DNA of 64,000 nt from Trueperaceae bacterium (GCA_034520945.1 JAXHNB010000006.1:448001-512000); one strand, 5' to 3'. Shown: positions 1 through 13,399, counted from the stretch's first letter. Made by a program: numbers and translations. The notes: generated from the letters alone by a model not told the origin.

Positions 1-190
1 GACCTCCTGGGAAGGCAAGGGCATGTACCGCGGCGGGCAGCGGACCGTGCTGTTCTGCACCGTCAACCGTGCCGAAGTCCGCGAGCTGGGCCGCATCGTG
101 CGGGAGGCGGATCACCACGGGTTCATGGTGATCGGGCAGGGCCAACGCGCCTCCGGCGGCACCATCGGCCAGAGCGATGCGCCTGGGTGA
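1..190 (+). CDS. YitT family protein, C-terminal DUF2179-like end (5'-partial)
   Basis: Frame from nt 2 reads TSWEGKGMYRGGQRTVLFCTVNRAEVRELGRIVREADHHGFMVIG, typical of the YitT C-terminal domain; TGA at 188-190. Confidence 0.75.
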   Translation, partial: TSWEGKGMYRGGQRTVLFCTVNRAEVRELGRIVREADHHGFMVIGQGQRASGGTIGQSDAPG

Positions 191-312
191 GGGGGCGTCG
201 CGCGATCATGAGGCGCACGCACGTAGAATGAGGTCGAGGCGTACGCACGCATCGTCACGCTGGGGCCGTCCGTCGCGCAGCGACACGGGCGCCCCGAATC
301 GGAGGGAGACAC

Positions 313-690
313 ATGCGCGATGCACCATCCCTACCCCAGTCGGTCGCCACGTGGATCGTGGTACTGGTCCTCGTCACGGCCGGCATCCACTTCTACCGGG
401 CGCTCGTGAACGACATGACGGTGCTGATCTTGTTCACCCTGAACGCGATCGGCTACCTGGTGCTCCTGGCCGGCATGTTCAGGGCCCCGACCCAACGCAC
501 CCGGCGCCTCGCCCGGCGCGTCTTGATCGGCTACACCGCGGTGACCGCGATCCTCTACGTGGCGTACGGGCTCGCCGGGGGCGGCTGGAAGTTGCCCTGG
601 GGGCCGACCAAGGAGATCGCCGAGATCGCGCTGCTGGTGCTGCTGTTCCGGGTCGAGAGGGCCGAGCGCACGGAGGTCGCTCAGGCCTGA
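313..690 (+). CDS. Small four-TM membrane protein, unknown function
   Basis: GGAGGGAG RBS before the ATG; four hydrophobic segments in 125 aa. Confidence 0.75.
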   Translation: MRDAPSLPQSVATWIVVLVLVTAGIHFYRALVNDMTVLILFTLNAIGYLVLLAGMFRAPTQRTRRLARRVLIGYTAVTAILYVAYGLAGGGWKLPWGPTKEIAEIALLVLLFRVERAERTEVAQA

Positions 691-765
691 TCGGTCGTTC
701 GAGCACCAGCGGCCTCGCCGCCGCCCCCGTTCCCCGATAGGTTCGAACCGCGCACCAGCGTGTCG

Positions 766-1464
766 TCAGGAAGAGGCGTCCATGCTGCCGTCGTGGGCGT
801 CGACACGGAGGCCCTCCAGGAAGTGCGTGACGATGCGTCCGGCGTCGTCCAGTGCGCGCGCCGCGTCCTCGGCGTGCGCGACCTCCATGCATGCTTCGTG
901 AAGGGCGCCCGACAACATCGTCGCCAGCAACGGAAGCGGCAATCGACGTATCAACCCGCGATTCATCGCGCGGCGCAGGTCCGCACGGAGCAGCAACGTG
1001 CCGTGCTCCTGCTCGACGCGATGCCACTGCTCCCAGCTCAAGACGGATCTCGGGTCCAGCAGGGCGATGCGTTGCACACGCGGGTCGGTTTGCAGCTCGA
1101 TGAACAGTCGGCAACGTGCGATCAACTCCTGCCAAACCTCGTCGTCGGTCTGCTGGTGCAGCAGCTTGATGCCCTTCTGCCCCAACGTTCGCGCCTGCGA
1201 TCCGGTGAAGGCGTCGTGGGAGGTGTGCACGATGAACGCGGCCCGTCCGAGGTTGCGCTTGACCCGCTCGTAGACCCGCAAGAAGATCTCGTCCTTGCCG
1301 CCGAAGTGATGGTAGAAGGCGCCCTTCGTCACCCCGGCGGTGCGGACGATCGCCTGTAGGGACGTCCCCGCGTAGCCGAATTCCCCGAACAATCTCTGCG
1401 CAGCCGTCAGGAGTGCTTCGCGGGTGGCCTCGCCTTGCTCCACGCGCTTCGATTTGACCGTCAC
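766..1464 (-). CDS. TetR/AcrR family transcriptional regulator
   Basis: HTH ATREALLTAAQRLFGEFGYAGTSLQAIVRTAGVTKGAFYHHF; GTG at 1464 with GGAGA RBS. Confidence 0.9.
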   Translation of the reverse strand: MTVKSKRVEQGEATREALLTAAQRLFGEFGYAGTSLQAIVRTAGVTKGAFYHHFGGKDEIFLRVYERVKRNLGRAAFIVHTSHDAFTGSQARTLGQKGIKLLHQQTDDEVWQELIARCRLFIELQTDPRVQRIALLDPRSVLSWEQWHRVEQEHGTLLLRADLRRAMNRGLIRRLPLPLLATMLSGALHEACMEVAHAEDAARALDDAGRIVTHFLEGLRVDAHDGSMDASS

Positions 1465-1503
1465 TGCGTCAACGTCTCCATCAGGACGAACGGTACCTGA
1501 TCC

Positions 1504-1549
1504 TTGACAGAGCATACCAGCGGTACGTAACATACATACCAGCGGTATG
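1504..1549 (+). promoter_or_regulatory. Promoter (TTGACA ... TAACAT) overlapped by two tandem palindromic TetR-type operators
   Basis: TTGACA 1504-1509 and TAACAT 1528-1533; CATACC-AGC-GGTACG 1513-1527 and perfect CATACC-AGC-GGTATG 1535-1549, between divergent tetR and DUF4242 genes. Confidence 0.75.
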
Positions 1550-1573
1550 GACCGTTGGAAGGGAGCGTCGAGC

Positions 1574-1840
1574 ATGCCCAAGTACGTCATCGAACGTGAG
1601 GTCGAAGGGGTCGGGCGCCTGTCCCCTGCCGAGCTCCGGCAGGCCGCGAGGGAGTCGGACACGGTCATCCGGGAACTCGGCATTCAATGGATCACCAGCT
1701 ATGTCACCGACGACAAGCTCTACTGCGTCTACGTGGCGGAGAGCGAGGAGGTGATCCGTGAACACGCCCGGTGCGTCGACGTCCCCGCGAACCGTGTGTC
1801 CAGAGTGGTGACGAACATCGATGCGGTGACGGCCGAGTAG
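1574..1840 (+). CDS. DUF4242 (SCO4226-like) small protein
   Basis: MPKYVIERE...IQWITSYVTDDKLYCVYVAESEEVIREHA...PANRVSRV matches the family pattern; GGGAG RBS. Confidence 0.85.
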   Translation: MPKYVIEREVEGVGRLSPAELRQAARESDTVIRELGIQWITSYVTDDKLYCVYVAESEEVIREHARCVDVPANRVSRVVTNIDAVTAE

Positions 1841-2036
1841 CCGAAGGACGACGCAGGGCGCTTCGCTCCGTTCTCGGAGGCCGACGTACGGGCGATCTTC
1901 GGTGCACGGTGCACGGCGGGCACCATCGAACCGTCTCGGGTCGCTACGGCGCACGAATGTCGTTTCGAGCCGGCGGCGCACCCGCGCGCGGACGCGCCCC
2001 GCCGCCTCCCGTCCATCGCGACGTACAATGGTCGGA

Positions 2037-4526
2037 ATGCAGAGTTCCACGGGGCGGGGGTACTACGCTGGAAAAACGATCCTTCTGACCGGCGCGACGG
2101 GGCTGGTGGGGAAGGCGCTGATCGAAGCCATCCTGCGAAAGCTGCCGGAGGTCGGGCGTGTCTACGTCCTGATTCGCGCACGAACCGACGCGGCGGGGCG
2201 CACCGTCTCCGTCGCGCGGCGGTTTCGCGAGGAGGTCCTGGCCTCCTCGGCCTTCGACGAGCTCCGCGCCCAGCACGGCGAGGGGTTCGAAGCGTTCGTG
2301 CACGACAAGGTCGAAGCCGTCGGCGGCGAGTTGTCGCGCGAACGGCTCGGCCTGGCCCCCGAGCTCTACCGGCGTTTGCAGGAGGAGGTCGACGTCGTCA
2401 TCGGCAACGGTGCGTTGGCCGTGTTCGACGCGCCGCTGGACCAGGCCGTCCACACCAACGCGCTGGGGCCGCAGCGGATCCTGGACTTCGCCCGCGGCGC
2501 GGCCAAGCGGCCGTTCGTGGCGCACGTGTCGACCTGCTACGTCAGCAACGTGGCGGGACCGGTGTTCGAGGCGCCTCTGCCGCCCGACTGGACGCCGGCC
2601 GGTCCGGACGCCGCCGACCCCTACGACGTCGACCGGGAGCTCGAACGGCTGCTGGCGCACGTCGGCCACGTTCGTAGCGGCGACCCCAGTGAAACCACGT
2701 CGCCGTGGTGGCAGGACCTCCTGACGCGCATCGGCGGGGACGGCCGCCCCGCGGGAAACGGCAGTGCCGGCCGGGCGGTCGACCCTGGCGAGCGGGCGGT
2801 GACGCAGCGGCTGGTGAACGACGGCCTTCGCTGGGCCCGCCGGCGCGGTTGGCGCGACACCTACACCTTCACCAAGGCGATGGGCGAACAGCTGTTCGCC
2901 CGCCACGGCGGCGACGTGCCCGGCCTGATCCTGCGTCCCTCGGTGATCGAGAGTGCGCTGGCGACGCCGACGCCCGGCTGGATCGACGGCTACCGGATGC
3001 TGGACCCGTTGATCGTCGGCTTCGCCCGCCGGCAGTTGACCGAGTTTCCGGGCAACCCCGAAGCCGTGTTGGACGTCGTGCCGGTGGACGTGGTGGTGAA
3101 CGCGCTGCTGATGGCCATCCCCTACACGCATGGGGGCGAGGGGCCCGACGTGTACCAGGTCGCGTCCGGCACCGAGAACCCGCTGCTGGTCAAGGAGTTC
3201 CGCGACTACGTCCGCGAGCACTACCAACGCGCGCCGCTCCGCCGCGCACGCGCGGGCCAGGACGACGACCTTCCCGAGTTGGCGTTCCCCGCGGTGGGTC
3301 GCTTCCTGCGCGGCCTCGAGTACGGCTACCTGCTTCCGGTGCGAGCGCTGGAGGCCGCGTACCGCCCGTTGGCGTTCACGAACTGGGGCCGCAAGCGGCG
3401 CGCCACCCTGAGCGCGCGACGGGCCCGGCTGACGTGGCTCCGCGACATGGCGGAGATCTACGGTCCCTACGGGGAGAGCCGCGCGCGCTTCCTGACGTAC
3501 AACGTGCGCCGGGCGTGGCGGGCGTTGCCCGCGGCGGAGCGCGCGGCGTTCCCGTTCGACGTGCGGGCGTTGGACTGGAAGCGCTACGTGCAGGAGGTGC
3601 ACCTGCCGGGCGTGGAGCGCTACCTGTTGGGGTTGCGGGGACGCCGTGCCGCGCCGGTCGCGCTGAGCGACGACGACGCGGCGGCCGGGGGGTGCCCCGC
3701 ATCGGTCGCAGCCGACGCCGGAACGCACGGAGAGGAGTTGGAGCCCGAGGTGCCCCGCGGCGCGCGCTCGAACTGGCGGCGGGCCGAACAGGTCCTCACC
3801 CTCACCCGCGCGACCTCCGCGGCGGAGGCGACCACCTGGACCACGCCGACGTATAAGCGGCTCATCCGCTGGGCCAGCATTCACGCCATCCACCTGGTCG
3901 CGCGCCTGCGCCTGGAGCTGGCGTGGGACGGCCGCGAGCACGTGCCCGAACGCGGCCCCTTCATCGTGGTGTCCAACCACACCAGCCACGTCGACACCGG
4001 CGTGCTGTTGGCCGCACTGGGGCCGCACGCGTCGCACACCTACCCGACCGCCGCGGCGGACTACTGGTTCAGCCGGCCTGCCGTGGCTTGGCTGCTGCAC
4101 GCCACGCTGGGCGGCATTCCCTTCGACCGGCACCGCCCCAACGTGGCACGCGCCCTGGCGCTTCCCGCGCAGGTGCTTCGCAACGGCCACTCGCTGATCT
4201 TCTACCCCGAAGGGACGCGCAGCCCGGATGGAACACTCCAGCCCTTCCGCAGCACCGTCGGCCTGCTGGCGCTCGCGTCGGCCGCACCGATCGTGCCCGC
4301 CTACGTTACCGGGGCCGCGCAGGCGCTCCCCAAAGGACACGCGGTGATCGCCCATCATCCCGTCCACGTCCGGTTCGGCCCGCCCACCCCGATCGAGGCG
4401 TACCTGGCGCGGCTGGACTACGAGAGCGTCTCCAGCGTGTCCCGGCGCTTGGCGCAGGACACGCACGCCGCCGTGGCGCGGCTGGCGCCCCCAGGCGCCC
4501 TACCGGCCGGGGAGGCACGGCCATGA
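2037..4526 (+). CDS. Fatty acyl-CoA reductase (alcohol-forming, male-sterility type) fused to a C-terminal glycerolipid acyltransferase
   Basis: TGATGLVGK, HVSTCYV, YTFTK (YxxxK), RPSVIES, PGWIDG, DVVPVDVVVN and FAR C-terminal FPFDVRALDWKRY; then NHTSHVD (HxxxxD), FYPEGTRS, PIVP; TACAAT 7 nt before ATG 2037. Confidence 0.9.
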   Translation: MQSSTGRGYYAGKTILLTGATGLVGKALIEAILRKLPEVGRVYVLIRARTDAAGRTVSVARRFREEVLASSAFDELRAQHGEGFEAFVHDKVEAVGGELSRERLGLAPELYRRLQEEVDVVIGNGALAVFDAPLDQAVHTNALGPQRILDFARGAAKRPFVAHVSTCYVSNVAGPVFEAPLPPDWTPAGPDAADPYDVDRELERLLAHVGHVRSGDPSETTSPWWQDLLTRIGGDGRPAGNGSAGRAVDPGERAVTQRLVNDGLRWARRRGWRDTYTFTKAMGEQLFARHGGDVPGLILRPSVIESALATPTPGWIDGYRMLDPLIVGFARRQLTEFPGNPEAVLDVVPVDVVVNALLMAIPYTHGGEGPDVYQVASGTENPLLVKEFRDYVREHYQRAPLRRARAGQDDDLPELAFPAVGRFLRGLEYGYLLPVRALEAAYRPLAFTNWGRKRRATLSARRARLTWLRDMAEIYGPYGESRARFLTYNVRRAWRALPAAERAAFPFDVRALDWKRYVQEVHLPGVERYLLGLRGRRAAPVALSDDDAAAGGCPASVAADAGTHGEELEPEVPRGARSNWRRAEQVLTLTRATSAAEATTWTTPTYKRLIRWASIHAIHLVARLRLELAWDGREHVPERGPFIVVSNHTSHVDTGVLLAALGPHASHTYPTAAADYWFSRPAVAWLLHATLGGIPFDRHRPNVARALALPAQVLRNGHSLIFYPEGTRSPDGTLQPFRSTVGLLALASAAPIVPAYVTGAAQALPKGHAVIAHHPVHVRFGPPTPIEAYLARLDYESVSSVSRRLAQDTHAAVARLAPPGALPAGEARP

Positions 4527-6391
4527 CGAGACACGACGGGCAGCACCGCGCACGCGGCCGGCGGCGTGCCGCGGCGGAACGCCCCTACGACCCTGCGCCC
4601 GGCCAGCGCGACCCGCACCTGTGGGGCTACCTGGACACGCGCTTCGAGTTCGTCGACGCCCGCACCGTGCGCCTGACCGGCGACCGCTACCCGCTGGCGG
4701 GCATGCCGCTGCCGCACTTCATGCCGTTCGTGGAGGAGCTGCTGGGCGTCCCGGTCGGGCCGGACCACCTTCAGGAGCCCGTCCCGCCGCCCGCGTTGCC
4801 GGCGCCGGTTCGGCACGAGGCCTTCCTGGCGGACCTCCGTGACGCCCTGCCCGAAGACCGGCTGGACGATGGCGAGGAGGCGCGGTTGGTGCACAGCCAC
4901 GGCCAGCTCAGCGTCGAGGAGATCTACCGTCTGCTGGGCGGCAACATTCCGGAGCGGATCGTCGACCTGGTGGTGCACCCCCGCGACGAGGACGAGGTGC
5001 AGACCCTGGTGCGCCTGGCCCATGAACACGGCGTGGTGCTCATCCCCTACGGCGGCGGCACCAACGTCTCGGGCGCGCTGACCTGCCCGCCGCACGAGAC
5101 GCGCATGATCGTGTCGGTGGACATGCGTCGCATGGACCGCATCCTGGAGATCGACCGGGCCAACGGCTGGGCCGTCGTCGAGGCCGGCATCACCGGCAAG
5201 GAACTCGAGACCCGCCTGGAGGCGGAAGGACTGACGACTGGACACGTGCCCGACAGCATCGAACTGTCCACGCTGGGCGGGTGGATCGCCACCCACGCCA
5301 GCGGCATGAAGAGGAACCGCTACGGCAACATCGAGGAGGTCGTCCTGGACGCCGTCCTCGTCACCCCCCGCGGGGTGGTCCGCGCCGTCCCGGTCGTGCC
5401 GCGCAGCGCCACCGGCATCCAGCCGCAGCGGCTGGCGTTCGGGAGCGAGGGCGGCCTCGGCATCGTCACCCGCGCCGTGCTGCAGGTGTGGCCGCTGCCC
5501 CCCGTGCGCCGGTACGCCTCGTTCGTATTCCCGGACTTCCAGGCCGGCGTGCGCTACCTGCGGGCCGTGCAGGCCGCCGGCGTGCGTCCGGCCAGCATCC
5601 GCCTGACCAACAACACCGAGTTCCGCCTGGGCCAGGCGCTGGGCCCCGCGCGTCACGGCACCAGCGCGTGGGTGTCGAAGGCGAAGCGGTGGTACGTCAC
5701 GCGCGTGAAGGGGTTCGACCCGCAGCGCATGGTGGCCTGCACGGTCGTGATGGAGGGCACCGCGGCCGAAGTCCGACAGCAGACGCGGGGCCTGTTCGGG
5801 CTGCTGAAGGATCATGGCGGCCTCTCGGGCGGCGCCGAGAACGGCAGGCGCGGCTACGCCGTCACGTTCGCGATCGCGTACATTCGCGACTTCCTGAACA
5901 AGCTGGGCATTCTGGGCGAAACGTTCGAGACATCGGCCCCGTGGAGCCGCATCCACGACATCACCAGCAGCGTCCAAGCCGAGCTGCACCGCCTCTGCGC
6001 CGAACGCGGCGTGCCCGGCCGGCCCTACCTGTCGTACCGGGTCTCACAGAGCTACCGGACCGGCGTGTGCATCTACTTCACGATGGGGTTCTGCGCGCGC
6101 GGCCTGAACGAACCCGAGGCCACCTTCCAGGAGATCGAGCACCGCCTGCGCGAGGTCGTCCTCGAGCAAGGCGGGTCGCTGTCCCACCACCACGGCGTCG
6201 GCAAGGTCCGCCAGGACTTCGTCCCCCGCGTCCACTCCGGCGCATCGATCCGCGCCGCCCAAGGACTGAAGCGTTCCCTGGACCCCAACGACGTGTTCGG
6301 CGCCGCCAACCACCTCTTCGGTGCGCACCTTGCCGAGACCGACGCGGTGGCACCCCAGCGCGAGGAGGGCCGCGCGGAGGGGACGCCTTGA
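4523..6391 (+). CDS. Alkyldihydroxyacetonephosphate synthase (AGPS-like FAD-linked oxidoreductase)
   Basis: PYGGGTNV, GHVPDSIELSTLGGWIATHASGMKRNRYGNIE, GSEGGLGIVT, PASIRL, IAYIRDF, GETFETSAPW, GVCIYF, GGSLSHHHGVGK; ATGA overlap with the upstream stop. Confidence 0.88.
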   Translation: MTRHDGQHRARGRRRAAAERPYDPAPGQRDPHLWGYLDTRFEFVDARTVRLTGDRYPLAGMPLPHFMPFVEELLGVPVGPDHLQEPVPPPALPAPVRHEAFLADLRDALPEDRLDDGEEARLVHSHGQLSVEEIYRLLGGNIPERIVDLVVHPRDEDEVQTLVRLAHEHGVVLIPYGGGTNVSGALTCPPHETRMIVSVDMRRMDRILEIDRANGWAVVEAGITGKELETRLEAEGLTTGHVPDSIELSTLGGWIATHASGMKRNRYGNIEEVVLDAVLVTPRGVVRAVPVVPRSATGIQPQRLAFGSEGGLGIVTRAVLQVWPLPPVRRYASFVFPDFQAGVRYLRAVQAAGVRPASIRLTNNTEFRLGQALGPARHGTSAWVSKAKRWYVTRVKGFDPQRMVACTVVMEGTAAEVRQQTRGLFGLLKDHGGLSGGAENGRRGYAVTFAIAYIRDFLNKLGILGETFETSAPWSRIHDITSSVQAELHRLCAERGVPGRPYLSYRVSQSYRTGVCIYFTMGFCARGLNEPEATFQEIEHRLREVVLEQGGSLSHHHGVGKVRQDFVPRVHSGASIRAAQGLKRSLDPNDVFGAANHLFGAHLAETDAVAPQREEGRAEGTP

Positions 6392-7221
6392 CGACGCGCC
6401 CGGCGACCCAGGCGTTCGCCGGCCAGGTCGTGATCGTGACGGGCGCATCCTCGGGCCTCGGTGCGGCCCTCGCTCGGGCGTTGGCGGCCGCCGGCGCGCA
6501 CGTCGCCCTGTTCGCCCGCTCCCAGGCCGAACTGGCGCGCGTGGCGGACGACTGCCGCCAGGCCGGCGGCGAGGCGCTGGTGGTGCCCGGCGACGTGACC
6601 TCACCGGACGCGTGCGCCGCGCTGGTGCAGCGCACCACCGAACGGTTCGGCCGCCTGGACGCGGCCGTGGCGTGCGCCGGCCTCGGCATGTGGGCCCGCT
6701 TCGACGAACTGGACGATCCCTCGGTTCTGCGACGGCTGATGGACGTGAACTACCACGGCGTCGCCAACCTGTTCCTGCCCGCCTTGCCGCACCTCACCGC
6801 GAGCGGCGGCATGCTGGTGGCGATCTCCTCGGTGCAGGGCGTCGTCGGCGTCCCCCATCACAGCGGCTACGCCGCGTCGAAGCACGCGGTGCAGGGCCTG
6901 TGCGACTCGCTCCGGATGGAGCTGCGCGGCAGCGGCGTCGGCGTCCTGACGGTGATGGCGCACTGGGTGCGCGGCACCGACCTGCGCGCCCGCGCCCTCG
7001 GTCCGGACGGCGCACCCCGAGGCAGCGCCGCCCCGCGTCACGGCGGCGGCGCCACCGATGTGGACACCATGACGCGCGCCGTGCTGAACGCCATCCACAG
7101 GCGCAAGCGGCGGGTGTTCGTGCCCGGGTGGCTGCGCTACCTGGCGTTGCTGTCGGAGGTCGCGCCCGGGTTGGCGGACCGGGCGATCGCGGGGCGGGTG
7201 GCGCGGGAGGGGAAGGAGTGA
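6388..7221 (+). CDS. SDR family oxidoreductase, candidate acyl/alkyl-DHAP reductase
   Basis: VTGASSGLG, MDVNYHG, SSVQG, YAASKHAVQG; TTGA overlap with the AGPS stop; GGAGG RBS. Confidence 0.85.
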   Translation: MTTRPATQAFAGQVVIVTGASSGLGAALARALAAAGAHVALFARSQAELARVADDCRQAGGEALVVPGDVTSPDACAALVQRTTERFGRLDAAVACAGLGMWARFDELDDPSVLRRLMDVNYHGVANLFLPALPHLTASGGMLVAISSVQGVVGVPHHSGYAASKHAVQGLCDSLRMELRGSGVGVLTVMAHWVRGTDLRARALGPDGAPRGSAAPRHGGGATDVDTMTRAVLNAIHRRKRRVFVPGWLRYLALLSEVAPGLADRAIAGRVAREGKE

Positions 7222-7225
7222 AGCC

Positions 7226-7623
7226 ATGACGCAGAACGTCATGACCTACAGGGGATACGCAGCCAGCGTCGCGTATGACGACGGCGATGGGGTGTTCACA
7301 GGGAAGGTGCTGGACATCAGTGACACGCTGTTGTTCTCCGGGGAATCCGTGGATGAGCTGCGCAGCAGTTTCCGTAGCCTCATCGACGACTACCTCGCGT
7401 ACTGCGAACGAACCGGCGCACCTGCGGACCGCCCGTTCTCGGGTCGCGTGCAGCTTCGCCTTTCACCTCAGCATTGCATCGCGACGCGGTCGTCGCTGCT
7501 GCCAGCAGGGATCAGAGCCTCAACGCCTTTCTCGTCGATGCCGTGAGCTCGTTCCTGACCTCGCTTGACGACGAAGCGCGCGAAGGCGGTACCGTCATAG
7601 ATTTCCAACGACTGGCGTCGTAG
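7226..7623 (+). pseudogene. hicB: HicB family antitoxin, frameshifted near 7470 (or assembly indel); no hicA partner
   Basis: MTYRGYAASVAYDDGDGVFTGKV...FSGRVQLRLSP continues in a shifted frame as LHRDAVVAAASRDQSLNAFLVDAV (RHH domain) to TAG 7621-7623. Confidence 0.75.
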
Positions 7624-7670
7624 TACGCGACCGCTGCACAGTGGGACGCAAACCGATGAGGCCGAGCGCT

Positions 7671-7895
7671 TCACCCCAAGCGTGCTCGTACGGCGCGAAA
7701 CACATCCCGCGCCGCGGTGCCTGAATCACCGCTTTGGTCCCATGCCGCATCCCGGCGCGCGGCCTCTTCGGCCCACAGAAGCGCGTTCTCTTCTTCGGAT
7801 AGTTCCTCGAGGCTGGCGAGAAGCTTCTGCGCCAAACGAGCCCGCTGACGCAAATCCAACTTCAGGATTTCCGCCTCCAACTCGTCGACGCCCAT
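7671..7895 (-). CDS. Addiction-module (TIGR02574-like) putative antitoxin, orphan
   Basis: LEAEILKLDLRQRARLAQKLLASLE...LWAEEAARR pattern; no recognisable RelE/ParE toxin follows. Confidence 0.75.
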   Translation of the reverse strand: MGVDELEAEILKLDLRQRARLAQKLLASLEELSEEENALLWAEEAARRDAAWDQSGDSGTAARDVFRAVRARLG

Positions 7896-8198
7896 GCTGG
7901 AACGGTACCGCGTATCGACGTGCTGGAGCGTGCCAGAGCCCGCAACGCTACGAGAAGGGGAAAGGGGAGGACGGCAGCACGGCCGAATCGAGCAGCAGCC
8001 GAGCTACGAGAAGCGGCAGCAAGAGTACGGCCGGATCCTGGGCTTCGCAAGGGGCAACGTCGTACAGGAGGTCGCGAACGCCGAAACGCAAGGCGCGGAG
8101 GGGATTGACAACGGTAAGAGAATCTTGACGCACCCCTGGGGAGGCGTGTTGTCACTTGGCAGGTTGTCTCAGGGCCATGACAATCGTCCACCTAGGGC

Positions 8199-8271
8199 TA
8201 GAATACGAACAGATCCCCCCTGATTCTTCGGAATCAGGCCGCGGCGCCCCTTCATTGGGGCGCCTGCTTTT
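8199..8271 (+). promoter_or_regulatory. -10 box followed by two hairpins (UUCG stem-loop and terminator-like stem with T-tract) upstream of the NYN gene
   Basis: TAGAAT 8199-8204; CCTGATTC-TTCG-GAATCAGG 8219-8238; GGCGCCCC-TTCATT-GGGGCGCC 8243-8264 then TGCTTTT. Confidence 0.55.
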
Positions 8272-8290
8272 GTGGCACGATCGGTTGGTG

Positions 8291-8913
8291 ATGCGAACAC
8301 GCGTGTACGTGGACGGATTCAACCTCTACTACGGGGCACTTCGTGGAACGCCATACAAGTGGCTCGACTTGTCGACCTTGCACGGGCGCCTACTTCCCAA
8401 GAATCGGATCGACCCTATCTACTACTGCACGGCCCGTGTGACAGGCCGCGCTCATGATCCAGATCAGCCGGTGCGCCAGGACGTCTACCTGCGTGCACTG
8501 CAAACGATCCCAAACCTCACGGTCGTCGAGGGTACGTTTCTCTCGCAAGAGAAGAAGATGCCTCTCGTGTCGCCTTGGTCAGGAGGACAACGGTTCGCAA
8601 CGGTCATCAAGACGGAGGAGAAGGGTCTGACGTGAACCTCGCCAGTCTGATGCTCCGCGACGGGTTCTTGGGCCTCTATGACGTTGCCGTACTCGTGTCG
8701 AATGACTCTGACCTCGCATTGCCCCTCAAGATCGTGCGTAACGAGATCGGCAAGACCGTTGGCATTCTCAATCCCCACAAGCGCGCGAGTAAGGAATTGA
8801 ATCTGCACCGCGACTTCTACAAGCCGATCCGGAAGGGCGTCCTTGCCGCAAGTCAGTTCCCGCACGAATTCCGAGAAGGAAACGGCCTTATCGCGAAACC
8901 AACCGAGTGGTAG
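8291..8913 (+). pseudogene. NYN (PIN-like) domain ribonuclease, split by a 1-nt deletion in a G run at about 8623-8625
   Basis: VYVDGFNLYYG...KTEEKG in one frame and SDVNLA...VLVSNDSDL...KPTEW in another; adding one G restores EEKGSDVNLA. Confidence 0.8.
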
Positions 8914-9063
8914 AGGTAGTCATGTTGCGAGGACGGTGCCGCTTCTTCAGCCACCCAAGGCGCCCGAGCCCGGTCCACCTCGCCGGGGGAGGTCCAGTGG
9001 GAACACTTCGCCGACACGCTGCAACGGCACGCCCCGAACGCGCTCCTCGAGCACGCCCTCGAA

Positions 9064-9357
9064 ATGCCGAACGACGAAGCGACCGCCCGAGCGTTGCAAC
9101 GCGAGTACGACCTCGACGCGCTCGACGCGTGGATCGCGTCCCTACCCGACGATGCAGGCATCACCCCCGACCCGGACGCACCGCCGGACCTGACCCGCTG
9201 GCCGGCCAACCTGCCACCCCCACCGCCCGAACCGCCCGGCGTGTGGGAAGCCCTGCAACACCTCGAAGCGTCCGGCCGGGAACCTGACGCCGCGTTCGCC
9301 GCTGGCGCCCTGTTCCATCTCGCCATCGCGCGCACCGTTCGGGAGGTCCAAGCGTGA
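9064..9357 (+). CDS. Hypothetical protein (mobile-element-like)
   Basis: ORF coupled to the next ORF by a GTGA overlap; start uncertain. Confidence 0.45.
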   Translation: MPNDEATARALQREYDLDALDAWIASLPDDAGITPDPDAPPDLTRWPANLPPPPPEPPGVWEALQHLEASGREPDAAFAAGALFHLAIARTVREVQA

Positions 9358-9539
9358 AGCACCTACACCCCCGCCTCGCCCGCCTCGAGGCCGCCAGTCG
9401 CCAGCCGTCCCGCGCCAGGACCAACGCCCGCGACCAGCTTCTCGACCGCGTTACGGACCTGGTCGAAGCGGGCGACACCGCCACGCTCGACCGGCTCGCC
9501 CACCGTGCGCGCGAACTGCGGGCCGCGAGGAACGCGTGA
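9354..9539 (+). CDS. Small hypothetical protein (mobile-element-like)
   Basis: GGGAGG RBS; GTGA overlaps at both ends; N-terminal RLARLE. Confidence 0.55.
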   Translation: MKHLHPRLARLEAASRQPSRARTNARDQLLDRVTDLVEAGDTATLDRLAHRARELRAARNA

Positions 9540-9754
9540 GCCGCGCCCTCGCACGCATCGCTGCCCTCGAGCGGCAAGCCTGCCGCGAAACGGGCGTGAC
9601 CGTGTGGAACCAGGACCCGACGGGCGCGGACACCTTCACCAGCTCGAAGCATCCGGGCGAAGCGCTCGTCCGCGCGCAGCTCGCTGACCGGCCGGGACCG
9701 ACCGACGCCCTCCGCATCGTCGTCGAATACGTGACCGCTACGCCTCGAGACTGA
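9536..9754 (+). CDS. Small hypothetical protein (mobile-element-like)
   Basis: GAGGA RBS; GTGA overlap; N-terminal RIAALE. Confidence 0.55.
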   Translation: MSRALARIAALERQACRETGVTVWNQDPTGADTFTSSKHPGEALVRAQLADRPGPTDALRIVVEYVTATPRD

Positions 9755-9883
9755 CGGCCTGCGGCCGGCTTGCCTTCGCAAAGAACAGGCCCGGCCCGGG
9801 ATGGGGAGCGGGCAGTCGGGGGTGACGCGCTGGAGGCATTCACAGCGGCGCACAGCGGTGGACCCTATGTGTTGGACAGTTAG

Positions 9884-10195
9884 CCCTTGGTCCTCTACTT
9901 CGTCATCATGTTCACCGTCAGCTTCTTCATGGGCAAAGCGTTCGGTGCGGACTACCCACGCTCCGCGACGCTCGCGTTCACGGCGTCTGGTAACAACTTC
10001 GAGCTTGCGCTCGCGGTCGCGATCTCGGTCTTCGGTCTCAGCTCAGGCGTCGCCTTTGCAGCCGTCATCGGGCCGCTGGTCGAGGTGCCCGTGCTGATCT
10101 CGCTCGTGTGGGTGGCGCTCTACTTCCGCAAGCGCTTCTTCGCTGAGGCACATGCTTCGGCCGCCGCCGTCGAGGGTAGCCGGGAACGTCAGTGA
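9884..10195 (+). pseudogene. acr3: ACR3 arsenite efflux pump, C-terminal fragment only
   Basis: PLVLYF...[20 protein letters not shown]...[15 protein letters not shown]; in-frame TAG immediately upstream and the N-terminal two thirds are missing. Confidence 0.85.
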
Positions 10196-10343
10196 TCGAC
10201 GGGAGAGCGAACCCAAGCGAAGGGACCCACCCATCCTCCGCGACCGCGATCTCGCCGCAACGCTCGAGCGCGCCCAGCTCGACAGTGCATACGTCGGAGC
10301 GCTCGCGTCCTCGATCTTCACGAGGCCGATCGGGCTCCGGTGT

Positions 10344-10670
10344 TCAAGACTCCGGATCCGAGAGCCACGCAAGAGCGTCGGCGGCCGTGTCCTGCACAGT
10401 CGCCATCTTCATGAGCCGGGCTACCAGGATTGCTTCGATGATCTCCGCGTCGCTGACGCCGGCCTTCCGAGCCTGCTTCGTCCACATGAGCGTGCAGGTC
10501 GACGACTGCAGGGCGGCGGCGACGCCGATGCCGATGAGCAGCTTCTGCGTCAGCGGCAACGCCTGCAACGCCGGGTTCTCGAGGGTGGCGGCGCGGTGGT
10601 CCATGTAGGTACGTGCGCCTTCGGGGGATGCGGTGCGAAGGATGTCCATTGGGGCGGCGGATGAGTTCAT
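10344..10670 (-). CDS. Carboxymuconolactone decarboxylase/AhpD-like protein
   Basis: LPLTQKLLIGIGVAAALQSSTC...ARKAGVSDAEIIEAILVA; AGGAGA RBS. Confidence 0.8.
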   Translation of the reverse strand: MNSSAAPMDILRTASPEGARTYMDHRAATLENPALQALPLTQKLLIGIGVAAALQSSTCTLMWTKQARKAGVSDAEIIEAILVARLMKMATVQDTAADALAWLSDPES

Positions 10671-10891
10671 TGTGTCTCCTCTTCGAAATGGGGTGGAGAG
10701 GTGCGCGGAGAACGCCGTCACGAAGGGAGTGAGCAACGACTCGCAACACCGCGGCACACCTTGCGACGTGATCGTCGGCACGGCTTAATCGCGGCGCACC
10801 TAAGGGCACCACCGCCCACGATGTCGTGAAACTGGCAGGTCACCAAGGGCCATTCGTCCGTGGCCCGCCGCGGCTCCGACGAAGACCGTGC

Positions 10892-11002
10892 GACCTGCCC
10901 GACCCGTGAAGCTTCGACCTGGTGCTGACCGTGTGCGACGCGGCCGCCGAGGCCTGCCCCGCCTACCCTGCGCGCACCACGCGCCTGCACGTGCCGTTCG
11001 AT
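10892..11002 (+). pseudogene. arsC: Arsenate reductase (LMW-PTP type) internal fragment with in-frame stop
   Basis: DLPDP*SFDLVLTVCDAAAEACPAYPARTTRLHVPFD; TGA at 10907-10909 where Trp is expected; no N-terminal CxxNxxRS loop. Confidence 0.75.
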
Positions 11003-11078
11003 CGCTGGACGATCGATCGCCGGCGCGTCGCGCGACTCAGTCGAACGCCGCCGCCGCCGGCACGCGCGCCGGCGTGTT

Positions 11079-11819
11079 TCACGGCATCCCCTCCTCGAAC
11101 AGGGCACGCTCGTCCTCGGGCAGGCGAGCACGCGCAAGGTCCCGAATCCCGTTCACGCCGATGAAGAACTCGCGCATCATCACGACCAGCAGGTACCGGC
11201 CGCTCTCGGTCAGCTCGAGCGCCTCGGCGTCGTCTCTAGAGAACGCACACGAGCCTTTCAGGAACAGGTACTCCGCCCACAGCGCACGCTCCACCGGCGC
11301 ACCGGTGCGCTCCGCGAAGGCGCGCTTGTCCAACCGCAAACCGAACAGGTCCATCATCAGCCGGTACCGCCAACGATCTGCTCGACTGAGCGGCATGTGA
11401 GCATCGACGCTGAGCCGTCCCTCGCCGATCGCTTCGGAATACGCTCGCAGGCTGAACGGATTGGCGTAGAGCTCGTCGCGTAGATAACTGAACGAACCGC
11501 TACCGATCCCCACGTACTGGTCGTGGTCGACAATGTACTCGTCGATCATCGTCGCGGCCTTACGTGAGAACGCCCACGCCGAGGTGGGCTCGAAGGTGTC
11601 GGACAACGCCCGGGAGAGCTCGCGGTATTGCCGCTCCTCGCGCGCGTAGTCGACCTTCCCGAGGGCACGCTCGAGCGGCTTCTCGACCGAGGGCGACACC
11701 ATCAGCGGGTAGTAGGTCACCTGATCCGCGCCGGTCGCTTTCAAGGTCTCGATGTCGCGCTTTAGCACAGCGTCCGTCAGGGACGGAAGGTTGAAGATCA
11801 TGTCGACGTTGAGCGTCGT
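11079..11819 (-). pseudogene. HemN-like radical SAM protein (MenK/MqnK-like), N-terminally truncated
   Basis: LNVDMIFNLP, QVTYYPLM, IDEYIVDHDQYVGIGSGSFS, GRYLLVVMMREFFIGVN; CxxxCxxC half absent. Confidence 0.7.
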
Positions 11820-11919
11820 GAGGCGGCCGGCAGCGCGACCTTCGCCTTGAACGCGGGAGCATGATTCCGACGGTTCTTCTTCACTTCAATCCCCATTCCG
11901 GAAGCCGAACGCTTCCTAC

Positions 11920-12423
11920 CTAAGGGAACTGTCCAAGATCCGGGGTCCAGCTCTCCCCCGCACGCACCCAGGCCCGCAACCTGATCTTTGATGAGTCTGA
12001 CGCATTGAGCACATCTCGTGCCATGTAGTGGAGTTCGTGCGCGAGGCCGCCACTCTGTTTCGGAGGGATTGTCTTAGGTGGCGCGAGCCCGGCGCTGCGC
12101 GCCAACTGGGAAGCGATGAGGGTGAAGTGGGGTCGCGTGCGTCGGGGCCATAGCCGCCAGAGAGGGCCACGTGCCTCAATGGCAATTCCGAAACTAAGGA
12201 CCTGGGCGCCATGCTGACTTCTGTTCATCACCTCTGCCATGAGCACGTCAGCTTTGAGGGGCGGTGTCAGCATCCCGAGTTGCGTGATGATCTTGAGTCG
12301 TGTGGACTCTCCAATTCGCCACTGGATGACGTTCCACACTAGAGACAGGACGGCTAAAATTGCGCCGATCAGGCCGACGGGTTCGCGTTCCCAGGCGCCG
12401 CTTAGCGCTTCCAAGAGATTCAC
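11920..12423 (-). CDS. Hypothetical protein with an N-terminal TM helix
   Basis: 167-aa ORF in visibly lower-GC DNA next to the tRNA; hydrophobic VGLIGAILAVLSLVWNVI. Confidence 0.55.
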   Translation of the reverse strand: MNLLEALSGAWEREPVGLIGAILAVLSLVWNVIQWRIGESTRLKIITQLGMLTPPLKADVLMAEVMNRSQHGAQVLSFGIAIEARGPLWRLWPRRTRPHFTLIASQLARSAGLAPPKTIPPKQSGGLAHELHYMARDVLNASDSSKIRLRAWVRAGESWTPDLGQFP

Positions 12424-12488
12424 TGTACTGAGTGTAAGTGTGCCGGCCGAGTTGTTGTCAAACTGCTGTCAGCGACGCTTCACAAAGC

Positions 12489-12513
12489 CGCCCCCGCGAC
12501 TTGAGCGGGGGCG
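12489..12513 (-). terminator. Hairpin downstream of tRNA-Ser
   Basis: CGCCCCCGC-N7-GCGGGGGCG followed by GCTTT on the minus strand. Confidence 0.6.
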
Positions 12514-12526
12514 ATTCTTACGTCTC

Positions 12527-12616
12527 TGGCGGAGGGAGAGGGATTCGAACCCTCGATACGGAAAACCGTATACACGCTTTCCAGGCGTGCTCCTTCAACC
12601 ACTCGGACACCCCTCC
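12527..12616 (-). tRNA. tRNA-Ser(GGA)
   Basis: Reverse complement GGAGGGGTGTCCGAGTGGTTGAAGGAGCACGCCTGGAAAGCGTG...GGTTCGAATCC...CCTCCGCCA; long variable arm; encoded CCA. Confidence 0.97.
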
Positions 12617-12742
12617 AGGGCCGCCGCGTGCGCACGAGAGTCTAGCAAGCCCGGGAGAGGCGGTCAACGCGGCGCGGCGCCGTGGTTTCACGGCGACATC
12701 CGACGGCGGCGGCCGCACGTACCATGCGTACGTGGAGGCGTC

Positions 12743-13399
12743 ATGTTGAGAGAGAGAATCGTGAACCTGTCGAGTCCGGACGAGGTGGATGCGTTCCTGG
12801 ACCAGAACCCGTCCAGCGTCGTGTTCAAGGCTGGAACGTGCCACAAGACCATGCAGGGGTTCGGCTTCCTGCAGGAGAAGGTCGAACCGCGCGAGGACCT
12901 GAAGGTCGGCGTGATCCGCGTCGTCGAGGCGCGCGCGGCCAGCAACCAGGTCGCCCAGCGTACCGGCATTCGCCACGAGAGCCCGCAGGTGATCGTGTTC
13001 AAGGACGGCCAGCCGGTCTTCGACCTCGACAATTGGGACATCACGCCCGAAGCCCTCGAGGGCGGCTTCCGCGAGCTGCCCGAGACCGGCGCGTCGGCGG
13101 CGGGGCCCTCGGCGTCGGGCAGCGACGAATTGGCGCCGTACCTGCAGGTGCTGGAGCAGTACCTGAACGGCGACATCGACGATCGCGAGTTCGAGTTCAA
13201 CTACACCACCATGTTCCGCGACGACGCCAGCCTGCGCGGCAACCGCGAGGTCGAGATCCTGAACTCCATCTTCGGGGACGTCGACCAGCACGTGAACATG
13301 CACATGATGATGGCGGGGCGGGGCCAGGATCCGAATCTTCGTGAGCGGGCGGATTCCGCGTATCGCGCGCTCAAGGAGCTTACCGCCCGTCCTGCCTGA
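12743..13399 (+). CDS. BrxC/YtxJ-like monothiol thioredoxin-fold protein with an extra C-terminal helical domain
   Basis: [53 protein letters not shown]. Confidence 0.8.

Follow-up and report, generated by a model that had tools for sequence, protein, structure and literature searches.

In the Trueperaceae bacterium GCA_034520945.1, three adjacent genes are likely to form one operon for the oxygen-compatible synthesis of 1-O-alkyl-sn-glycerol-3-phosphate by a route that depends on alkyl-dihydroxyacetonephosphate synthase (AGPS). The genes lie at positions 2037-7221 of a stretch of 64,000 nucleotides (JAXHNB010000006.1:448001-512000), which is called the window below and has a G+C content of about 71%. 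Such a gene set is already known from Myxococcus xanthus and is common in uncultured bacteria. The assignment of function, made by homology and synteny, is well supported.

The interval is occupied by three plus-strand open reading frames (ORFs). The first encodes a fatty acyl-CoA reductase (FAR) fused to an acyltransferase, an architecture named FARAT, and the third a short-chain dehydrogenase/reductase (SDR). DHAP stands for dihydroxyacetone phosphate.

2037..4526, + strand: gene 1, FARAT architecture (FAR plus C-terminal HX4D acyltransferase), 829 aa, with Pfam and PDB matches
2085..3629, + strand: FAR domain of gene 1 (NAD_binding_4 plus Sterile)
3927..4307, + strand: Acyltransferase domain of gene 1 (PF01553, PlsC/AGPAT-like), proposed DHAP acyltransferase
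4510..4515, + strand: ribosome-binding site of gene 2, GGGAGG, read from the sequence
4523..6391, + strand: gene 2, AGPS (EC 2.5.1.26), 622 aa
6377..6383, + strand: ribosome-binding site of gene 3, GGAGGGG, read from the sequence
6388..7221, + strand: gene 3, classical SDR, proposed NADPH-dependent acyl/alkyl-DHAP reductase, 277 aa, TTG start

Genes 1 and 2 share a 4-nt ATGA overlap at 4523-4526, and genes 2 and 3 a 4-nt TTGA overlap at 6388-6391. A GGAGG-like site stands 5-7 nt 5' of each overlapping start. The three genes are translationally coupled. An earlier reading made from the sequence alone (the sequence-only reading) had joined them by these overlaps, and all ORFs, their strand and both overlaps were recovered.

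In the proposed pathway, the FAR domain of gene 1 would reduce acyl-CoA (or acyl-ACP, where ACP is acyl carrier protein) to a fatty alcohol, and the HX4D acyltransferase domain would convert DHAP to 1-acyl-DHAP. The flavoprotein encoded by gene 2 would then swap the acyl group for the alcohol, giving 1-O-alkyl-DHAP, and the SDR would reduce the keto group with NADPH to give 1-O-alkyl-glycerol-3-phosphate (1-O-alkyl-G3P). Finally, a housekeeping PlsC-type enzyme would acylate the sn-2 position, resulting in plasmanyl (alkyl-acyl) membrane lipids; the genome has a separate PlsC-like gene on contig C1. All of these substrates and products are predicted, and so are the preference of the acyltransferase for DHAP and the leaderless promoter described below.

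The nature of the ether can be predicted from a missing gene. CarF/PEDS1 (PF10520) was not found in the genome itself (G000, 97.4% complete) or in any of five other AGPS-bearing Trueperaceae genomes. As a control for sensitivity, the same search was run on five genomes with AGPS from other phyla and matched two of them. The predicted products are therefore alkyl ethers and not vinyl ethers. The sequence-only reading had come to the same prediction after finding no CarF/TMEM189 in the window, and the whole-genome search extends it.

The AGPS and its conserved neighbourhood

Gene 2 carries the Pfam domains FAD_binding_4 (PF01565, E 8e-37) and FAD-oxidase_C (PF02913, E 9.6e-34). A phmmer search against all PDB chains matched it to guinea-pig AGPS (4bby; E 1.6e-139, 469 bits, query residues 33-596 on chain residues 95-656) and to Dictyostelium AGPS (2uuu; E 7.5e-86, 292 bits). 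The best non-AGPS family in the PDB reaches 90 bits, in an alignment that begins only at residue 148. The AGPS-specific N-terminal region of gene 2 is matched by AGPS and unmatched by other flavoenzymes.

R360, Y518 and H555-H557 of gene 2 align with R419, Y578 and H615-617 of the guinea-pig enzyme, which we take to be its catalytic positions. The PDB variant 4bca departs at exactly the Tyr position that is aligned to Y518. None of these positions varies among 11 diverse bacterial homologues (alignment A1). Sequence comparison with the solved enzymes identifies gene 2 as an orthologue of AGPS that keeps the catalytic residues.

If gene 2 instead encoded an oxidase or dehydrogenase of the D-lactate/glycolate type within the VAO family, it would have no ether-forming role and its neighbourhood would be coincidental. 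Its best NCBIfam match is indeed GlcD (TIGR00387), at 149 bits, which is far under the cut-off of 568; NCBIfam appears to be without an AGPS model. No D-lactate, glycolate or 2-hydroxyglutarate enzyme exceeds 90 bits, compared with 469 bits to AGPS, and gene 2 has the AGPS-specific N-terminal region, the HHH loop and a linkage that is kept across phyla. The PDB comparison effectively refutes this alternative, to which almost no probability is given. Grouping with such oxidases was what the sequence-only reading, which had called the protein AGPS-like, named as evidence that would count against it.

Evidence that the AGPS works with its neighbours can be provided by observing the same neighbours elsewhere. 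AGPS loci were scanned in one genome per bacterial species, and the best 80 of at least 577 confirmed loci were kept for linkage counts. These 80 come from Trueperaceae, Aquisalimonas, Wenzhouxiangella, Hydrogenedentota, Phycisphaeraceae, Latescibacterota, Gemmatimonadota, Acidobacteriota, Neomarinimicrobiota, Chloroflexota, Cyanobacteria and Poribacteria; no myxobacterial locus is among them.

Among the best 80, 76 loci extend at least 900 nt past AGPS. In 61 of them an SDR resembling gene 3 follows directly 3', within 2 kb and on the same strand (60 found by script, plus L046, whose SDR and AGPS genes share a few bases). On the upstream side, 61 loci offer at least 4.5 kb, and 27 of these have a FAR no more than 3 kb from AGPS. 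In L026-L030 this FAR and the acyltransferase form one fused protein, and in 20 loci a gene of about 2 kb parts FAR from AGPS. Other phyla have the variants acyltransferase-AGPS-SDR and FAR-X-AGPS-SDR. What recurs is therefore an alcohol-forming reductase together with an acyltransferase, AGPS and an SDR, which correspond to the four pathway activities. The sequence-only reading had proposed looking for this neighbourhood in other genomes, and the linkage is found across many phyla.

In the split operons (L013:5537-7513 of the Trueperaceae genome G012, and about 20 of the scanned loci), the gene between FAR and AGPS encodes a protein of about 658 aa. The G012 protein has no PDB or NCBIfam match, and a weak match to Pfam Acyltransferase (E 0.008) at residues 441-560. 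In L097, one frame is open from FAR through the spacer to an acyltransferase match. This spacer protein probably fills the acyltransferase step of the split operons.

Gene 3 is a classical SDR. It matches Pfam adh_short (E 6e-48) and NCBIfam PRK06181 (272 bits, cut-off 215), and its motifs TGASSGLG, ISS and YAASK correspond to the TGxxxGxG and Ser...YxxxK of the family. The SDRs linked to AGPS are 37-60% identical to it over about 265 aa, and its best paralogue in the same genome is 37% identical over 180 aa. By this measure, gene 3 has much nearer relatives among the AGPS-linked SDRs than among the paralogues of its own genome. In the available text of PMC13256971, the known acyl/alkyl-DHAP reductases (Ayr1p, DHRS7B and that of Dictyostelium) are classical SDRs, a group in which identities seldom exceed 30%. 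Because the eukaryotic reductases share such low mutual identity, synteny is the best available argument for the role of gene 3, and its position directly 3' of AGPS in most loci therefore supports an alkyl-DHAP reductase.

The fused acyltransferase and the case against the pathway

Gene 1 contains NAD_binding_4 at residues 17-356 (E 9e-57), Sterile at 469-531 and Acyltransferase (PF01553) at 631-757 (E 3.5e-20). With N-terminal NAD_binding_4 and Sterile and C-terminal PF01553 in one polypeptide, it has the defining domains of a FARAT, and the single open FARAT frame is kept in L026-L030. Its FAR half matches the solved fatty acyl-CoA reductase 7eoz (E 5e-76), and no other FAR-domain protein was found in its genome (tblastn, E 1e-5). 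The motifs TGATGLVGK, YTFTK, NHTSHVD, GGIPFDR, FYPEGTRS and PIVPAYV are kept in seven fused homologues. The last four represent the LPLAT/GPAT-AGPAT blocks I-IV, which are HX4D, (F/I)xxR, EGTRS and the proline block. In genome G024, the FARAT gene shifts frame about 85 codons past its start (L012:12289-12292; tblastn pieces in two frames), by a frameshift or an assembly error.

A search with the acyltransferase domain, in which 8000 candidates were scored, returned 79 proteins at E <= 1e-5. The 66 clusters at the top are of the FARAT type, most with full FAR, Sterile and Acyltransferase domains and a few truncated. Below them the score falls steeply, and the proteins that follow carry AMP-binding and carrier domains. 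Four of these (P0192 and P0194-P0196; 1432-1449 aa, E 1e-18 to 1e-23) have the architecture FAR, acyl-CoA synthetase, ACP and acyltransferase, like ElbD of M. xanthus, a label given from domain architecture only. One of them, P0194, aligns to both the FAR (30% identity, E 4e-54) and the acyltransferase (38%, E 1e-26) of gene 1. No named Myxococcus protein is listed among the matches of this word-based search. There are hints in these results that the gene 1 fusion differs from the type found in the M. xanthus operon protein MXAN_1675.

Several observations weigh against the pathway as proposed. The acyltransferase of gene 1 is PlsC/AGPAT-like and not of the GNPAT/PlsB type: the best solved match of its C-terminal ~200 residues (627-789) is PlsC (5kym, E 3.7e-17), and no GPAT_C (PF19277) was found in gene 1 at E 0.01. 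Gene 3 is without a specific solved or named relative; its solved matches are generic and include 11-beta-HSD1 at 78 bits. The adjacent SDR is missing in 15 of the 76 loci. The GNPAT table of PMC13012113 (PF01553 plus PF19277, PTHR12563; its PF19277-bearing proteins have 800-905 aa) has no Deinococcota row, a silence that is weak evidence because the genus Myxococcus is missing there as well. Literature on ether lipids of Truepera or Trueperaceae was searched for and none was found. In the available text of PMC9131029, disruption of the M. xanthus AGPS gene MXAN_1676 causes only a small drop in ether lipids, since the main route runs through ElbD. The M. xanthus operon itself is therefore no proof that such a gene set suffices.

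The DHAP specificity of the acyltransferase, which we infer for a PlsC/AGPAT-like domain without GPAT_C, is the weakest step. It is conceivable, at a small probability, that the pathway runs as proposed while the fused domain acts as the sn-2 acyltransferase for 1-alkyl-G3P, and that acyl-DHAP comes from another enzyme or from a housekeeping side activity. The domain is PlsC-sized, its best NCBIfam matches are 1-acylglycerol-3-phosphate and acyl-ACP-phospholipid acyltransferases, and relatives carry the JGI label '1-acyl-sn-glycerol-3-phosphate acyltransferase', all of which would suit such a role, as would the PlsC match and the lack of GPAT_C. AGPS, however, requires acyl-DHAP, and the cassette holds no second candidate for a DHAP acyltransferase. 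An acyltransferase, fused or separate, stands beside AGPS in several architectures across phyla, and the genome already contains the separate PlsC-like gene on C1. The equivalent myxobacterial domain is read as GNPAT-like in the accessible portions of PMC9131029 and PMC13012113. DHAP acylation by the fused domain is the preferred assignment. The claim of the sequence-only reading that three proteins provide all four activities fits the conserved linkage, with the DHAP acyltransferase role as the part that is predicted only.

It is improbable that the main products of the operon are storage or surface lipids (fatty alcohols, wax esters or neutral ether lipids) and not precursors of membrane phospholipids. 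Reductases such as the solved relative 7eoz do yield free fatty alcohols, and neutral alkyl-diacylglycerol is also made by M. xanthus, according to the available text of PMC9131029. For wax esters, however, an intact AGPS with its catalytic positions and a conserved downstream ketoreductase would be pointless, and no wax synthase/DGAT-type domain is among the Pfam matches of the three operon proteins. Synthesis of 1-O-alkyl-G3P remains the favoured function.

Lineage, probable movement of the cassette and its surroundings

The sequence-only reading had placed the host in the Deinococcota. This agrees with the nearest AGPS homologues, which are named Trueperaceae, Deinococcota and Deinococcus-Thermus, and named Trueperaceae cluster with the window. 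An AGPS (E <= 1e-100) is present in 25 of the 364 genomes of the phylum, this one included. Without it, the counts are 12/127 in its own family, 12/19 in a second family of the same order, and 0/125, 0/23, 0/68 and 0/1 in the others. In its own genus, AGPS is found in 2/10.

A quick IQ-TREE phylogeny of 89 AGPS rows (LG+G4) places the window in a clade of six Trueperaceae rows (SH-aLRT 99). This is nested in a ten-row clade (SH-aLRT 100) that adds Aquisalimonas, Wenzhouxiangella, one Hydrogenedentota and one metagenome-assembled genome (MAG) of Phycisphaeraceae. All members of the ten-row clade have the fused arrangement where their sequence reaches far enough. Trueperaceae G012 and L068 have the split arrangement, and their AGPS falls among Latescibacterota and Gemmatimonadota. 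Forcing all eight Trueperaceae rows together costs 184 log-likelihood units (approximately unbiased test, p 4.9e-9); this grouping was chosen after the tree was seen, the group itself being set by taxonomy. Judged by this tree, the Trueperaceae hold two unrelated AGPS lineages.

The second family has a divergent AGPS-like gene in L014-L017 (genomes G040, G036, G028 and G032), with 43-45% identity and a branch of 1.14. The gene (for example L016:7254-10347) adjoins a class-V aminotransferase, with no FAR, acyltransferase or SDR alongside. The L016 copy is one of the rows of alignment A1, where the catalytic positions are invariant, and the metagenome protein P0105 is a 1060-aa fusion of aminotransferase and AGPS. 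This AGPS-like gene may lie outside the standard ether-lipid route.

When the window is compared with G024 and L026, the 5.2-kb cassette alone is colinear and the flanks differ. The stretch from the tRNA-Ser(GGA) listed below to the next gene shared with relatives measures about 18.5 kb in this genome, operon included, and about 3.3 kb in G008. No integrase was found in C6:438000-449000 or in window positions 1-13000, and no att repeat search was made. A signature of recent transfer was rejected, the composition of the operon being native-like: its GC of 72.6% falls at the 74th percentile of the genome (70.8 ± 2.9%), and in tetranucleotide distance it stands at the 27th percentile. Because only the cassette is colinear, its composition is native-like and no integrase was found, transfer of the cassette is likely, and it would not be recent.

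A bolder proposal is that FARAT-AGPS-SDR is a self-contained cassette moving among Trueperaceae, halophilic Gammaproteobacteria, Hydrogenedentota and Phycisphaerae, and that its fusion has an origin of its own, in an ElbD/PlsC-like acyltransferase, independent of the FARAT of myxobacteria and eukaryotes. This is offered tentatively, as a possibility that is rather doubtful at present.

The operon has the following surroundings in the window:

766..1683, - strand: TetR-family regulator, divergent from the operon side (Pfam TetR_N, TetR_C_41); possible regulator, membership uncertain
1547..1840, + strand: SCO4226-like small protein, 196 nt 5' of the operon; membership uncertain
2024..2029, + strand: TACAAT, a -10-like hexamer ending 7 nt 5' of the gene 1 ATG at 2037
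12527..12616, - strand: tRNA-Ser(GGA), where synteny with genus relatives resumes

TACAAT occurs once in the 64-kb window, counting both strands, compared with a mean of 1.6 in shuffled sequence. The hexamer had been taken as a -10 box in the sequence-only reading. It is present, and no -35 hexamer is paired with it, nor did a sigma-70 consensus scan call a promoter there. No Shine-Dalgarno sequence stands between it and the ATG at 2037. Six homologues, compared at their N-termini, agree with this start, and translation from an ATG at 2028 is also possible. Leaderless mRNAs are common in Deinococcus, and TACAAT is the probable promoter of a leaderless transcript. No terminator was called 3' of gene 3. 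The TetR and SCO4226-like genes were rejected as conserved operon partners, since neither adjoins the operon in the relatives examined. The SCO4226-like gene has a promoter-like site of its own, TTGACA-18-TAACAT (1504-1533).

A gene for a HicB-family antitoxin (7226-7620, + strand) begins 4 nt past the operon stop and is broken over two frames near 7470. The two frames match positions 1-27 and 27-50 of the Pfam HicB profile, both with scores slightly below the gathering score. The gene is a pseudogene with a frameshift, or the break is an error of the assembly. The region 7222-12200 is compositionally foreign (GC 64.7%, 4th percentile; tetranucleotide distance at the 96.5th percentile) and holds only gene fragments, among them NYN (8575-8913) and a HemN_C-like match (11079-11801). 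Segments within 9.9-11.8 kb are 84-92% identical to a multi-copy sequence of genus relatives, which occurs twice in G005. The ORF at 12218-13399 (+ strand) has a monothiol bacilliredoxin BrxC domain and a weak colicin-immunity-like match; it is doubtful because the tRNA-Ser lies inside its range on the opposite strand.

Related systems and significance

M. xanthus, compared here by published description, has an operon that combines these three protein types and for which the same chemistry is proposed. In the available text of PMC9131029, this operon consists of MXAN_1676 (an AGPS about 42% identical to the human enzyme), MXAN_1675 (FAR1-like plus GNPAT-like acyltransferase) and MXAN_1674 (NAD-dependent epimerase/dehydratase family), and genetic evidence indicates that MXAN_1676 contributes to alkyl ether lipids. 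The order is FARAT-AGPS-SDR in the window and AGPS-FARAT-reductase in M. xanthus. The third gene of the window is a classical SDR (adh_short) rather than an epimerase/dehydratase family member, and its acyltransferase is PlsC/ElbD-like, whereas that of MXAN_1675 is described as GNPAT-like. Neither CarF/PEDS1 nor elb genes were seen next to the window operon, where no search aimed at them was made.

The fusion is named FARAT in PMC13012113, where GTDB was searched for all four enzymes. Its Datasets S4/S5 list AGPS in eight Deinococcota genomes (six of them Trueperaceae) and FAR in five Trueperaceae, and three of the Trueperaceae FAR rows are FAR + Acyltransferase fusions of 781-831 aa with gene numbers adjacent to AGPS. 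Relatives of gene 1 stand in its FAR table under PTHR11011, and its main text has 0 occurrences of Deinococcota. The novelty claimed in the sequence-only reading thus falls away on two counts: operons of AGPS, FAR-acyltransferase and reductase are published for M. xanthus in what is available of PMC9131029 and PMC13012113, and the datasets of the latter already contain Trueperaceae AGPS and FARAT. Its label 'eukaryote-type' would be the wrong way round if bacteria were the donors of the eukaryotic pathway, as is argued in the accessible part of PMC13012113. Homologues of agps are also noted in Poribacteria, Acidobacteriota and Latescibacterota MAGs (2026 preprint 10.64898/2026.06.23.733905) and, more distantly, in Ger-bearing bacteria (PMC13159169), as far as the available texts go.

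The peroxisomal pathway of animals and Dictyostelium (FAR1, GNPAT, AGPS, DHRS7B/Ayr1p) shares with the window an orthologous AGPS, a FAR with a Sterile domain and a classical SDR as reductase. It differs in being housed in an organelle, which the window system does not have, and in its acyltransferase: the domain in the window is PlsC-like and about 200 aa long, in contrast to eukaryotic GNPAT, a protein of about 680 aa. FAR and acyltransferase are fused in the window, as in many protists and unlike animals (PMC13012113, available part).

ElbD combines FAR, acyl-CoA synthetase, ACP and acyltransferase, and ElbD-like proteins are the nearest to the window acyltransferase outside its own clade. 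Gene 1 is without the AMP-binding and carrier-protein domains, and it is coupled to AGPS, whereas the ElbD route is AGPS-independent in the available text of PMC9131029. The anaerobic PlsA/PlsR and Ger enzymes lead to the same end product class, bacterial non-isoprenoid glycerol ether lipids. As described in the accessible parts of PMC13159169 and 10.64898/2026.06.23.733905, they are unrelated enzymes that reduce an existing ester and work only anaerobically; the window operon has no such enzyme.

The oxygen-compatible AGPS route has genetic support from a single bacterium so far. The cassette described here comes from a second, distant phylum and holds all four predicted activities in 5.2 kb, with no competing ElbD-type protein in the cassette. 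This makes it a convenient object for studying the sufficiency of the bacterial AGPS route and the specificity of the fused acyltransferase. New here are the grouping of the cassette with those of Gammaproteobacteria, Hydrogenedentota and Phycisphaeraceae, the two AGPS lineages of Trueperaceae, and the PlsC/ElbD-like acyltransferase domain.

Glycerol ether lipids of the non-isoprenoid type serve as biomarkers in environmental studies and are relevant to the 'lipid divide'. For the lineage, alkyl ether lipids are predicted in a minority of Trueperaceae, in line with the AGPS count in the family. If the tentative reading of a mobile cassette with an independent fusion is true, aerobic Deinococcota would be an unrecognised source of non-isoprenoid monoalkyl glycerol ethers, which geochemists usually credit to anaerobes.

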